A model generated the notes under the pieces. That model was not told the DNA's origin. It made no database searches and saw nothing but the letters and a program-made list of their open reading frames with translations. A stretch of DNA of 64,000 nucleotides from Sarea resinae (Eukaryota). The stretch lies in assembly GCA_026026165.1 (NCBI GenBank), contig JAPEUD010000032.1, positions 1 to 64,000 on the forward strand, written 5' to 3'. This document shows, piece after piece, positions 25,207 through 43,360 of the stretch. Position 1 is the stretch's first letter. Each line of letters opens with the position of its first letter. The translations under genes were made by a program, and so were the position numbers.

Positions 25207-26197
25207 ATGATAGCTGGCACACAAGCTTATTCGCGAGTCCCCTCCGAGGAGGAGCCTCTGCAATTTGAAAAGGACCCAAACTCAACGCTGAAACGTTGGA
25301 GGCGATTTCGAAGCTGTCTCAATTGTCGTACGCCATGGCTTCTCGCTTTGTCAGCGACCTTCTTCTGCTCTTCGTTTTTAGTTCTTCTGCTCGCGTATCG
25401 TATCAAACCCAGTGACCGTCGCTGTCTGGAGAAGATGTCTGCCATTTGTTAGTCCAAGGAATTCCTGGTGAAAGGTGCACTTTTATGGCTCGAGGCTGAC
25501 ACGAGGAGTACTTCAGCACCCGTCTTCGAGGCAGTTGAATATGAATGGCGTACCTTTGAAAATGATTTCTTCCACCCGTCTATCTATAGGGGTCCCCCTA
25601 CAGCGGAGCTGGAGAAAGCATGGGACGATCTCTGGAACTGTAAGTCAAAGATCCAGTACTGTCGATAATTCGTCGGTCTGATTCCACCCCCAGATGGGGC
25701 TTTCAGTGTGCCATCTGAGATGCTGCCTAAACTCAATAAGTCGACCACTGGGTGGCGGGAGGTCCCAGCGGAGAAAGGCGGCGGTGTAGCAGGTTTGCTC
25801 GAAGGCTTTCATCAGATCCATTGTCTGGTAAGTCAAGGAGTGTCTTGCACCATGGCAGGGCCGCGCATTTATCTGACTCGCGAGTCAGAACTTAATTCGA
25901 CAATACACCTATCGTGACCAGTGGGATTATAGCGGTTTGCCGTCCTTTGACGGCACCCCATCGCTAGTACGGCATCATGTAGATCACTGCATCGAGACGC
26001 TCCGTATCAACCTGATGTGCACAGCAGACGTTACCCCGTATCTGATCCAGCTCAATCCTCAGCGACGACTAGGAGAAGACCCCAATTTCAATACATTGCA
26101 TAAGTGCCGAAATTGGGACAAGATCGTAGACTGGGCTAAGGAGCACGAGGTATTTCGAGGTGTTGATCCACATTCGGCGCATACGGATCATAATTGA
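25207..26197 (+). CDS. DUF3328/UstYa-like oxidase #1 (4 exons)
   Basis: N-terminal TM helix, YRGPPTAELEKAWDDL, FHQIHCL, HVDHCIETLRINLMCTAD, HKCRNWD. Confidence 0.93.
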
Positions 26198-26563
26198 GGG
26201 CGTGAAGACATCTAGATAATGATCAGCTGCGAACATTTTTAAACAAATGAAATGCCATTGAGTTTAGCTAGCCCTGGTCAAATCTGAATTTACCTGAGCG
26301 ATATGGAGTATTCCACATAGTATAGGACTGTTTCAGTCCAGAGAGCGCAATGCCTTCCAAATCATTGGCTCATGAATTTTCACATTCGGATCACTCCCAC
26401 CCGACAAACAGGGTACTGATATCTGGTACGGATAGAATGCATACCTCTGTGAATATATATATATGATCCAACTCGTCTGCCTCCTCCCTAAGACGATAAC
26501 TGCTGCGATACCACAGAGGACGCAACTGAACAGAAACATTCAAAAGAAGCCTCTTCTATCAGA

Positions 26564-27646
26564 ATGGACGTCCAGCGTTTGGCCTGGCGTGAATCGTTCG
26601 CAATTCCTCGTCGAGCATGGATCACACATCTTGCTTTCTTCGCCGTTTCGTTGTTCTTCGGCGCTCTAGTTCCCTCATCCAGGAGCGTGTGCACGTCCAA
26701 GCTGGTCCATAGCCACGAATCCTGTCCCACAGCCCATGCTATCCCCATTCCCCATCCAGAACCTGCTTCCGCTTCCAGACATGAAGACACCAGAACGCCC
26801 TTCGAGCTTCCTGTTTTCCAAGCGGACATTGGCCAAGGCAGCTATGGTGACGATACACCGTCCACATCTGGCCACCAGTATGAATTCGTACGTTTCAACG
26901 GCAACCCGGACGCCAAAAGCCCTTACAAGGGGCCTCCGACACCCGCGGTTGATGCCGCGTGGGATAGTCTTTGGGCTGCAAACATGGTCATTTCTGGGGA
27001 ACTGTATGCCTCCACGGAACCGGAGTATCCGGCAGCCGGGGTGAAAGACTCTACTCGGGAAGACGCCTTCTTCGCCACATTTGAGGCAACGCATCAGTTG
27101 CATTGCTTGGTGAATTCACCCTTTCCTGAGACATCGCCAAGGTCTGGTATCTGAAGCAATTCTGACGCGAACATGCTTTGCAGTACACTCTCTTCCGCGC
27201 ATCGTACGTCGATTATTACGAGCCAGAGCGGAAATTCATGCAACATGATCCGGATCGGTATCACGCGCGACTAGGTAGTTCACCCAGGCTTTACTCCACC
27301 CCCCAATCGATGTTATGGCGGTAATTTCGGGACCGCTGACTGAAGGATGCAACGAGTAGATCACTGCACAGACATCTTGCGCCAGAAGCTTATGTGGTAC
27401 GTCAACCGTCAAAGCTTGTGGCGCGCCCGTGCCCTGCGAGTTGCTGATGTCAATCACAGTGATAGCGATGCTAGCGTGGCGACGTACAACTGGGTGCGAG
27501 GCAAGCAAGGTCCGGTTGCCAATTACAATGTTCTACATAGATGCCGCAAGCACGAAGTTTTGCTCCGTTGGGGTGAAAAGCATGCGGCGACAGGCGCTGT
27601 GTTCAACAGAACCGACGCTGCAAAGGAACTGGATAAAGATCCCTAG
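26564..27646 (+). CDS. DUF3328/UstYa-like oxidase #2
   Basis: YKGPPTPAVDAAWDSL, THQLHCL, spliced RL|DHCTDILRQKLMC, HRCRK. Confidence 0.9.
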
Positions 27647-39916: not shown

Positions 39917-40930
39917 ATGCATTTCTTCAAAGAGGTTGCTTTGAGATTGAGCCTCTTATGGAATAATAAGGCCAATTATGGTGCTCTTCTGTCTAGGGCA
40001 GAGTCCGAGCAGTTATATCCGACGAAAATTGAGGAAGAGGTTGAGGGAGGAGCCCCTATCGGGGACGATGAGAGGCCGTTAGGGTTCTATCAACGGTACC
40101 GTTTTCGAATAGTTGGGGCCATCGTTACCACTCTTATTGCCATCATTGCGGGCATTGCGATGATCTCGGTATCCGCTCGCCACAAGCTGAAAGTCCCTAT
40201 TACTGTTGTTCCACCAGGTATCTCGATCTCTCCCACCCGTCGTCATAAGCAATGCTTACGGTCTTCACTGGTGAAGTTCCAGAAGTTATTCGGGCCTTTG
40301 ACAGAGACAAATCATATCTTCAAGCGCCTACAAGAGACGGTGGCAAGCTGAACGCTACATGGGATGCCCTTTTGCCTCGTAAGTTTATATCAATATCTAC
40401 GTCTCAAGACACTGAGTATGCTGACTGGCTATATTCTCCTCGACAGCTGGAAGAGGCTTCGTCCTAATTGAAGACCATACAAAATTTGGGCTTTCTACTG
40501 GTCTGCCCACCGGCGACGGCGACGCTCGCTTTTCAATATCCATGTTCCATCAGCTTCATTGCCTAGTGAGTTGATCCATCCTTTCATAGTCTTCACTAGA
40601 TTCAAAAGAACTCATTAAAAACGGAAATTGCAACGCACTTACACCTCAACCTAGGACTATGTCCGCACCACCTTATATAATGTGATCCTAAATCTCCAAT
40701 CAAACACTCGGGAGGACATTTTCATCGCGGAAATAGACCAGGCCGACCATCTGCCGCACTGTCTCGATTACCTCCGACAAGGCATCATGTGCTCAGGCGA
40801 CACTTCGATTGAAGGTGCAAAGTATGACGAACATGGCACCGTGGTTTTTGGCATCGGAAGTGAGCATAAGTGTAAGGACTTTCAAGCCATCTACGATTTC
40901 ACGGCAAAGCATGCCGATACTGTATTCTAG
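39917..40930 (+). CDS. DUF3328/UstYa-like oxidase #8
   Basis: TM helix, NATWDALLP, SMFHQLHCL, HLPHCLDYLRQGIMCSGDTSIE, HKCKDF. Confidence 0.92.
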
Positions 40931-41506
40931 CCAGCAAGTTCCCCAATTTCAACAATGCCTGCAATGTAGACGTAGATTTCAGGCAAACTGCGTACGAGTG
41001 CAAGCAAAAGGATGAGGAATAGAGGCCAGTTGTAGTTTGCCGTATCTCGATGGGCCATCCTTCGCATGCTCCACAGGGTAATTTTAGTGCTTTCTTTACA
41101 ATGTAGTTCGGCATCATGACTTGCGTCGACTATATCATCGCCATGCATACCCAAGGTAGTAAAGATTGTTTTGTCGAGCAGCACCCACGTCTTCTTTACC
41201 CCTACCCCTTACCCATGTATCAGCAACGTTGCGAGCTCGCATACACGAGTTGCATTGCTTGCAGCACAGGAACAATCCCTGTGACTTCTTCTAAAGTTCG
41301 TATCTTAGCACTTTCATGCGAATTATGGCCGAGCGGATAGATAAGTCCGTAGTATGGGCTCCGTACTGCCGCCAGGCTTGCCGGAAGAAACTACTCCTCT
41401 ATCAACGTCCACTCCGCTTCCCTCGTCTTTTTGAGTCAAGATTTGCTCTACGTTGGGTCAAAATTCATCACGAGAGTCGCTTTGAATCTCGTGGTTCATC
41501 TGAAGC

Positions 41507-43360
41507 ATGGCACAGCTCTCTAGCCTTGACAGAGACGCAAATAGTTCCGCCTTATCTCTGGATGTAAGCTGCTGCGAGAGCGCAAGCCATGACCATGAGA
41601 AGAACCTGAGTCAGGCTGCTCAGATTCTTTTGACATGCAGTGCAGGCGGGCAAGCTAGGCTATCCTTCCAATGCCTCTCATAGTCCAATGCTAACCCATG
41701 TTCCAGACTTCAAGTAATATGGGCTGTTATGAACTGCAATATCAACGTCAGTATCTCTGTTGCCAAAAACTCTGTATATTGATTTATTGTTAAGCACCTG
41801 TCCACGACGCTAAACAAATGCTCTTGATCCAGCCGTTCCTCTTGTCTCTGGGAATTTCCGAATCGTTGACCCCCATTATTTGGCTTGCCGCACCTTTGAG
41901 CGGCACAATTGTGCAGCCAATCGTCGGTGTACTGAGCGATCAGTACACTCATAAGTTTGAGCGTCGCAAGGTTTTTATCATCTATGGCACTGTTACGACG
42001 ATTCTATCATTTCTGGCACTAGCGTGGACAGAGCCAGCAATACACGCCATTGCAAAGCGAACAACAGGAGAATCTTCGAAAAAAGACGTAGCTATACTGG
42101 TGACATCTTCCACGGTTTTCTGGATTTACATGTTCAATATTTCCATTCAGCCTGTGCAGCTGGGGATTCGTGCTTTTATTGTTGACAATTGCCCTGAATA
42201 TCAGCAATCAGAAGTGAGCGCATGGGCCAGCTGTATCAGCGGTCTTGGAAACATCTTTGGTTATCTCATCTCTTTCATATTACTTCCACACGCCCTTAGA
42301 GTGCTTGGGCTCTCGCGGTTTCAAGGTCTATGTCTTGCGGCATCGTTGGCTCTGGTTTTCACGGTGAGCGCTAGCTGCTGCTTTGTCTCAAGTCCAGGCA
42401 GACCACCGAAGAGGGAGCCCAGCAACAAGCTAGGCATTACAGCAATCCCAGGCCAACTTTATCGAAGCGCAAGAGCTACGCATCCCAAAATCTGGAGGAT
42501 CTATCGAGTACAATTTTTCGCATGGATGGGCTGGTTCCCCTTTTTATTCTACATGACGACGTACGTGTCAATCCACACTCGACATCTTTTGTATATTATG
42601 CTTCTGTCCAACGTCAAGATTATTCTGCTGATTCTGGTCTTATAGGTTCATTGCCAAACTAAGTTCGTACCGATCATCCTCAGAGAATGCCGACAAATGC
42701 GTTCATTGAAACTGACAAATTTCAGACGCTTCACACATGCGGGCGCCAAACAGCTTCCACCAAGCCAACATCCGCGTCGGTGCTTTCGCCGGCCTGATGT
42801 ATGCTGCAGTCGGTGCTTTGGCCAATATAATTCTCCCTTATGTAGCTAAATCGCAGCCGCACCCATCATCATCATCTCTGGCCCCTCCCCTCGTTTCCGC
42901 GCGAGTCACCAGCGTCTTTTCATCTCTCACTCTCGAAAAAACCTGGAGCATTTCGTACCTGGCATACGCATTTCTGATGTTCGGCACAACTTTTACGTTT
43001 TCATCGAGTAGCGCTATCGTCCTCATCGCCCTGACTGGAATACCCTGGGCTTTGGCACAGTGGATCCCGTTCGCACTACTTGGAGCCGAAATCGCGCGCC
43101 TGCGAACAGCAAAATCGCAGGAAGCTCTCGTCACCGATGAGAACCTTCTTGAAAGTCAAGATGACGCTGGTATTACGCTCGGCTTGCACAACGCTGCCAT
43201 CTCCGCTCCACAGATTTTGGCAGCCCTGGTGTGTGGGTTGGTTGTCTGGCTTGCGGATGTGCTTGGGAGTCGTGATGGAGTGGGATGGGCGATGCGGTTT
43301 GGTGGCTGTGCGGCATTGTACACGGCTTGGCTTGCCAGAGACTTGACCCTAGAAGTCTGA
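41507..43360 (+). CDS. MFS transporter, sucrose/alpha-glucoside permease (Sut1/SLC45-like)
   Basis: LLTCSAGG|LQVIW, PFLLSLG, WLAAPLSGTIVQPIVGVLSD, QFFAWMGWFPFLFY, GLHNAAISAPQ; start approximate. Confidence 0.87.

Follow-up and report, generated by a model that had tools for sequence, protein, structure and literature searches.

The 64,000-nucleotide stretch of Sarea resinae contig JAPEUD010000032.1 analysed here (the window) carries an island at 25207-43360, which begins with the first letter of the ATG of gene 1 and ends with the stop codon of a transporter open reading frame (ORF). A repeat precursor gene lies amid eight genes for proteins with HxxHC motifs, four on each side (strand order +, +, –, + on the left and +, –, +, + on the right), and a major facilitator superfamily (MFS) permease follows. 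We consider it likely that these genes form a functional UstYa-type (dikaritin-like) cluster for a RiPP (a peptide made on the ribosome and then modified post-translationally) of a new core family. A first-pass annotation of this DNA had described a KR-delimited repeat precursor among eight HxxHC genes on mixed strands within ~18 kb, and every element was found as placed. The window is fungal in character, with a GC content of ~0.47–0.59 and short GT-AG introns in the genes. The features of the island are:

25207-26197, plus strand: gene 1, UstYa/DUF3328, 268 aa (exons 25207-25447, 25517-25639, 25694-25827, 25889-26197)
26564-27646, plus strand: gene 2, UstYa/DUF3328 paralogue, 286 aa (exons 26564-27109, 27184-27274, 27360-27396, 27460-27646)
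27796-28774, minus strand: gene 3, UstYa/DUF3328, 275 aa (exons 28546-28774, 28369-28497, 28197-28315, 27796-28146)
29828-30863, plus strand: gene 4, UstYa/DUF3328, 280 aa from the ATG at 29828 (exons 29828-29954, 30035-30366, 30421-30514, 30574-30863)
32289-32660, minus strand: precursor gene, a single uninterrupted ORF of 123 aa
32308-32567, no strand assigned: tandem repeat array within the precursor gene (Tandem Repeats Finder: period 72 nt, 3.6 copies, 84% matches, score 387)
33403-34513, plus strand: gene 5, UstYa/DUF3328, 253 aa, six exons in a hand-built splice model
33403-33637, 33698-33859, 33920-34001, 34057-34087, 34147-34234, 34350-34513, plus strand: exons of gene 5, no internal stops
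36643-37353, minus strand: gene 6, divergent double-HxxHC membrane protein, 236 aa, no intron, Cys-rich insert
38082-38998, plus strand: gene 7, UstYa/DUF3328, 281 aa (exons 38082-38627, 38699-38998)
39917-40930, plus strand: gene 8, UstYa/DUF3328, 263 aa (exons 39917-40217, 40283-40378, 40447-40565, 40655-40930)
41507-43360, plus strand: MFS permease gene, candidate ATG at 41507, large exons in ORFs 41794-42645 and 42716-43360

The precursor opens with a hydrophobic, signal-peptide-like N-terminus (MIPKALVALLAASTLVTA...) and contains the 24-residue unit ETDEQVDPATEIIWTKNYGEYEKR four times, with a different N-terminal flank at the first one. The core VDPATEIIWTKNYGEYE is present in each of the four repeats and is followed by KR, KR, KR, and RK, in that order. 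This is the layout of a dikaritin precursor: a hydrophobic N-terminus and repeated cores flanked by Kex2 (KR) sites. The 17-residue block common to the four repeats varies at 13 nucleotide sites, every one of them a third codon position. No amino-acid change separates the copies in any of the six pairwise comparisons, and in a simulation of 13 random substitutions not one of 20000 draws was synonymous throughout. Since the repeat copies differ only synonymously, selection acts on the repeat peptide. A TATA-like run lies ~130 nt upstream of the precursor gene.

We found PF11807 matches (E-value ≤ 0.01) in 13 of 28 ORF pieces, of which 12 also pass the 25-bit cut-off; together the 13 cover genes 1–5, 7, and 8. 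Gene 1 (motifs HQIHC and HVDHC, transmembrane (TM) helix at about residues 45–63) matches on three exons (best E-value 6.2e–24). Two matches each were obtained for gene 2 (first motif HQLHC; E-values 3.6e–15 and 3.9e–10), gene 3 (HELHC and HLAHC; 1.3e–20 and 1.7e–6), and gene 4 (HQLHC and HIDHC; 1.6e–12 and 4.5e–19). Genes 5 (HSLHC and HVDHC) and 8 (HQLHC and HLPHC) match on the last exon (8.9e–16 and 1.6e–15, respectively), and gene 7 (HQMHC and HIDHC) on exon 2 (6.5e–12), its exon 1 scoring below the cut-off (17.7 bits). The canonical HxxHC pair is present in six of these seven genes, gene 2 being the exception, and a phase-0 intron directly follows HxxHCL in all seven. Each of the eight proteins of the island has one strong hydrophobic segment near its N-terminus. 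Pairwise identity is 18–31% among the seven PF11807 genes, which are therefore old, specialised paralogues and not recent duplicates; gene 6 is 13–20% identical to each of them. When the eight proteins were searched against the 64-kb window by tblastn, all 62 high-scoring segment pairs fell within the eight genes, so their grouping is no chance effect.

Splice models were built from GT-AG introns scored by donor, branch site, and length, with gene 5 assembled by hand. For gene 2 the fourth-ranked and for gene 4 the second-ranked model was taken, in each case to restore the paralogue-conserved stretch after HCL. Pseudogenised oxidases had been named beforehand as a sign that would speak against function; under the models used, all eight HxxHC genes are intact single open frames of 236–286 aa. 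Gene 4 could have a longer cytosolic tail, judging by in-frame upstream ATGs at ~29702 and ~29675.

Gene 1 has close relatives in other genera. It is collinear with a Penicillium occitanis protein (P0160) over all three splice junctions (192/267 identical residues) and shares 159/184 residues with a protein of Aspergillus section Nigri (P0194), so that identity to these Talaromyces/Penicillium occitanis and Aspergillus section Nigri orthologues spans 72–86%. In the lumenal domain, the proteins of the window, of Talaromyces/Penicillium occitanis, and of Aspergillus section Nigri (P0160, P0194, P0195, and P0196) are 85–87% identical. The Talaromyces and Aspergillus proteins also share one 90% cluster in the database. 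Such identity is high for a secondary-metabolism enzyme compared across genera and suggests either very strong constraint or horizontal spread of the cluster. The UstYa profile had no meaningful sequence match among solved structures, and a wide VIA-align search with the UstYa model reached a best Z of 5.4 on a helical hairpin, from which no family could be named.

The older definition of dikaritin clusters comprised five genes, and the available text of PMC12048977 describes functional clusters without some of them and redefines the class by a DUF3328/UstYa protein with two HxxHC motifs. A precursor with DUF3328/UstYa genes, which the first-pass annotation had read as a dikaritin-type layout, fits this definition: seven PF11807 genes stand beside the precursor, six of them with two canonical HxxHC motifs. 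Besides the first 28 pieces, a further 44 island ORFs of ≥60 aa were scanned against Pfam. None of the 44 matched, in line with the earlier statement that no other obvious tailoring enzyme is present, so that beyond the eight HxxHC genes, the permease, and the precursor the island holds nothing that Pfam recognises. Tyrosinase, methyltransferase, and peptidase domains of the older five-gene definition were not found in the 28 + 44 pieces. The annotation of all eight HxxHC genes as DUF3328 held only in part: eight HxxHC-type genes are there and seven carry PF11807, but gene 6 scores 11.3 bits against this model (E-value 0.31), under the 25-bit gathering threshold, and does not qualify as a member.

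Gene 6 nevertheless carries two motifs, HLAHC (residues 175–179) and HTEHC (205–209), and a TM helix at about residues 41–71. With HMMER, its relatives among 1.84 billion representatives number 1549 at E-value ≤ 1e–3, 549 at ≤ 1e–10, and 6 at ≤ 1e–30, the nearest homologues being from Helotiales. From the 150 matches listed we picked 70 (top-ranked and longer ones); PF11807 at E-value ≤ 0.01 was found in none of the 71 sequences that these make with gene 6. The family consensus retains the Cys-rich block and both HxxHC motifs. In the Atlas, gene 6 retrieves unnamed Ascomycota clusters only, and the first PF11807-bearing cluster stands at rank 18 (score 0.84). These matches place gene 6 in a large fungal family that has no name. 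Alignment of gene 6 to UstYa alignments with hhalign gave probabilities of 48% (E-value 1.8e–4, 52 columns) and 54% (65 columns), exactly over both motif helices. The AlphaFold 2 (AF2) model of gene 6 has a mean predicted local distance difference test (pLDDT) score of 82.7, and the lumenal domain mostly scores 95–98 per 10-residue block, with one block at 89. In this model the motifs lie on helices 172–191 and 203–215, after the TM helix at 41–71, and the model of a gene-1 orthologue has the same local order of strand, HxxHC helix, loop, HxxHC helix, and strands. The gene 6 model thus presents the DUF3328 architecture in its wide sense, i.e. a TM anchor and HxxHC(x)nHxxHC on two adjacent lumenal helices. 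Searches beyond the family were uninformative: the gene-6 profile had no meaningful sequence match among solved structures, and in the wide VIA-align search the best Z of its model was 4.2, on the TM helix only, with no family nameable.

Relatives of the precursor are few. Among proteins of 67–216 aa in a protein database of 5.8 billion clusters we found only five, from Aspergillus fijiensis, Sclerotinia trifoliorum, Gnomoniopsis sp., and two JGI records; no relative of 217–2000 aa was found among 8000 candidates scored. Both aligned repeats of all six precursors have WTKNYG without variation, and nearly every copy continues with E/D-Y; the flanks vary. In two relatives KR stands four residues before the Trp, which narrows the conserved part to roughly xxxxWTKNYG(E/D)Y. 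Judged from these alignments, the core is conserved across three fungal classes and is the same in Eurotiales, Helotiales, and Diaporthales, which is unusual for RiPP cores. An invariant core points to a conserved target or to a tightly co-evolved enzyme set. A metagenome scan with the precursor alignment returned 54 pattern matches, of which one (L001, 10001-10210) passed tblastn. We rejected it as a precursor: it is a Gly/Asp-rich longer repeat protein on a 361-kb contig. Since this protein carries IWTKNYG by chance, the short motif by itself lacks specificity.

These relatives bear on the strongest competing explanation, which we still regard as unlikely: that a characterised multi-DUF3328 RiPP cluster, e.g. 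that for asperigimycin in Aspergillus flavus, has its orthologue or a near family member here, in which case the class of the product would already be known. Asperigimycins are reportedly polycyclic Trp/Tyr cross-linked RiPPs produced by several DUF3328 enzymes, and the core found here does contain one Trp and two Tyr. Moreover, a gene-1-like protein (P0184) of A. minisclerotigenes, a member of section Flavi, is 48% identical to gene 1 (57% over the local alignment). However, none of the five precursor relatives comes from A. flavus or section Flavi, and the scored candidates include no longer relative. WTKNYG and its variants were not found in the searchable main texts, the supplements of Nagano 2016 and of the asperigimycin study being places that may list the core, nor in three supplementary files of a survey of Kex2-processed repeat proteins (KEPs; the available part of PMC7329392); the asperigimycin core itself is outside this comparison. 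Another known product, TMC-95, was considered for the core and rejected. Its reported building blocks (an Ile-derived acyl group, Tyr, Asn, oxidised Trp, and propenylamine) overlap with the core residues and are not collinear with them. Acalitide (PMC10840396) is unrelated.

A slightly more improbable alternative is that the repeat protein is an ordinary Kex2-processed source of unmodified, secreted signalling or pheromone-like peptides and that the HxxHC genes serve another substrate, e.g. a non-ribosomal peptide as in cyclochlorotine. KEPs are widespread, many of them without modifying enzymes (PMC7329392, available part), DUF3328 enzymes also tailor non-ribosomal peptides (PMC12435403, available text), and a core invariant across fungal classes would also fit a receptor ligand. 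The position of the precursor argues against this, both here, where it is central among the eight HxxHC genes, and in two distant fungi. In S. trifoliorum, the precursor homologue CAD6444123.1 and a gene-6 homologue, CAD6444121.1 (48% identical), are both on a 2,245,759-base contig. In A. fijiensis, the precursor homologue RAK80249.1 and the gene-1 orthologue RAK80246.1 are both on a 763,473-base contig; RAK80246.1 is one accession of P0194, which bears the name 'oxidase ustYa family protein' and is 86% identical to gene 1. Because the accessions are two to three numbers apart and the contigs are of equal size, an HxxHC homologue would stand beside the precursor in both fungi. In addition, Pfam scans of ORF pieces found no non-ribosomal peptide synthetase or polyketide synthase domain anywhere in the window.

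Under the preferred reading, a UstYa-type RiPP cluster, we infer the processing, cellular location, kind and number of modifications, and joint expression of the genes as follows. The 123-aa precursor would enter the secretory pathway through its signal peptide. A Kex2-type protease would then cleave after each KR, as Kex2 does with dikaritin precursors in the Golgi (available text of PMC9233826 and PMC6514808), and yield four identical peptides containing IIWTKNYGEY(E), whose ends host exopeptidases would presumably trim. DUF3328 enzymes are described in the accessible sections of PMC12435403 as dimers that are joined by disulfides, anchored by a TM segment, and located in the lumen; HxxHC(x)nHxxHC makes up their binuclear copper site, and they use O2 and electrons. 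By family membership, the seven membrane-anchored DUF3328 enzymes and the divergent double-HxxHC protein are predicted to be binuclear-copper, O2-dependent, and dimeric, and would oxidise the core in the Golgi/endosomal lumen. Among the known DUF3328 reactions are ether macrocyclisation, hydroxylation, and halogenation (PMC12435403, PMC9233826, and PMC6514808, in the parts available). Here, the side chains of Trp and two Tyr would probably become linked to aliphatic C-H positions on the residues next to them, hydroxylation or desaturation would be added, and the outcome would be a small polycyclic peptide.

The first-pass annotation had taken eight oxidases to predict heavy cross-linking. A heavily cross-linked, undescribed product is plausible, but the gene count does not set the number of modifications. 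According to the available text of PMC6514808, one cyclisation requires UstYa together with UstYb and a single AprY makes two, so counting the genes does not give the number of reactions. Because DUF3328 enzymes act in dimeric form, hetero-dimers could occur; with these, and with gene 2 possibly altered, eight genes need not equal eight reactions.

The surroundings of the cluster are well delimited, its edges being housekeeping genes. Outside the island there are 170 ORFs of ≥100 aa, of which 167 were covered by the flank scans and two TFIIIC ORFs by the island scan, with the antisense ORF 43818-44249 omitted. Nearest on the left (Pfam, 92 ORF pieces) is a PTM1-like membrane protein, and farther left are amidase, AhpC/TSA, NTF2 (SigF-like), flavin monooxygenase, aldo-keto reductase, Sas10/Utp3, and EMP70. 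On the right (Pfam, 75 pieces and the island scan) are TFIIIC-delta, a C1-like peptidase, UQ_con, POP1, a cation-efflux protein, and a thiolase. On the left, 9185-21000 holds a loose group of enzymes (aldo-keto reductase, flavin monooxygenase (FMO)/Pyr_redox_3, SigF-like NTF2, AhpC/TSA, and amidase) that could be a separate small metabolic cluster. The C1-like (bleomycin-hydrolase-type) cysteine peptidase at 47397-48879, ~4 kb past the permease, is probably housekeeping; it is the sole peptidase near a cluster whose peptide needs N-terminal trimming. Inside the island there are two gaps between convergent genes, 30864-32288 (1.4 kb) and 34514-36642 (2.1 kb), in which no ORF piece of ≥60 aa has a Pfam match; they may represent long 3' untranslated regions, decayed genes, or unrecognised small genes.

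The permease had been annotated as an MFS transporter that follows the oxidases. A large exon does match MFS_1 at the end of the island (E-value 3.6e–10, a generic match only), but the nearest named Atlas clusters are of the 'General alpha-glucoside permease family' and MFS_2 types (scores 0.98). Because of this likeness to alpha-glucoside, sucrose-type, and other sugar permeases more than to drug exporters, both its role as an exporter and its membership in the cluster are doubtful. No splice model was obtained for the gene at strict search settings, nor for its N-terminal exons by manual reading.

Several observations weigh against a functional RiPP cluster. The permease may simply be a neighbouring sugar transporter, and no regulator, protease, or clear exporter specific to the cluster was found in the Pfam scan of the island. 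The second motif of gene 2, HARLDHC (27184-27396), has Arg at the expected first His, so that one of the four motif histidines is missing, and no choice of alternative splicing restores the His; mutation of this class of motif histidine killed CctR, the cyclochlorotine hydroxylase (PMC12435403, accessible sections), and gene 2 may be a catalytically altered or non-catalytic partner. The homology of gene 6 to UstYa is suggestive and does not amount to proof. The orthologue check of the splice models covers gene 1, the seven other models resting on sequence, and the neighbourhood in other fungi is deduced from accession order and equal contig sizes, not from the sequence of the loci. No 7-mer is shared by all six promoter regions and no 8-mer by at least five of six (null means 0.06 and 0.08, respectively). 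A silent or decaying cluster, with some genes non-functional and no product, is the least probable of the alternatives, since the degenerate second copper motif of gene 2, the two gene-free gaps, and the missing regulator and dedicated exporter stand against nine intact reading frames, purely synonymous differences among the four repeats, and the conservation of gene 1.

If the UstYa-type RiPP reading is extended to the precursor relatives, WTKNYG(E/D)Y could define a new class-spanning family of hyper-oxidised polycyclic RiPPs with an undescribed scaffold, which would need seven UstYa paralogues and a gene-6-type (probably copper) branch. We offer this tentatively, as possible rather than probable. 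If true, it would provide the first functional context for the gene-6 family, which has at least 1549 representatives and no Pfam model, and gene 6 would tie this large unannotated protein family to RiPP biosynthesis. Ustiloxins, phomopsins, and victorin are examples of antimitotic and phytotoxic peptides of fungi whose cross-links are formed by UstYa/DUF3328 enzymes, and these were only recently shown to be binuclear copper enzymes. The practical value of the cluster lies in a defined nine-gene target for heterologous expression.

Among known systems, ustiloxin and phomopsin share with the cluster a precursor with a signal peptide and KR-delimited multiple cores, cut by Kex2 in the Golgi in those systems, and paralogous UstYa/UstYb-type proteins with two HxxHC motifs (PMC9233826 and PMC6514808, available text). 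Unlike the island, where Pfam detected none of these, they also carry tyrosinase, methyltransferase, peptidases, a cytochrome P450 or FMO, and a Zn-finger regulator. Their cores start with Tyr (YAIG, YVIP), whereas the core here starts with Trp. CctR is described in the available part of PMC12435403 as having a disordered N-terminal tail, one TM helix, and a lumenal HxxHC(x)nHxxHC on adjacent helices, an architecture that structure prediction also gives for gene 6 and the gene-1 orthologue. The substrate of CctR is, however, a non-ribosomal peptide, and for the proteins found here copper binding and dimerisation are predictions.

There is also a likeness to asperipin-2a of Aspergillus flavus (aprA, aprY, aprT, and aprR), which is, like the cluster here, a minimal UstYa-type system without tyrosinase or methyltransferase. 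It combines a Kex2-repeat precursor with the Tyr-rich core FYYTGY, an ether-forming DUF3328 oxidase, and a transporter (PMC6514808, accessible text). In contrast, the core WTKNYGEY is unrelated and has Trp, Lys, and Asn, no reductase was found in the island, and the transporter is sugar-permease-like. The earlier counts of two oxidases for ustiloxin and one for asperipin-2a agree with the available text of PMC6514808. With seven UstYa-type genes and a divergent one against the single oxidase of asperipin-2a, the number of such genes here is far above that in the two compositions compared, and the cluster is a compact setting in which to study how several oxidases work one after another on the same short peptide.

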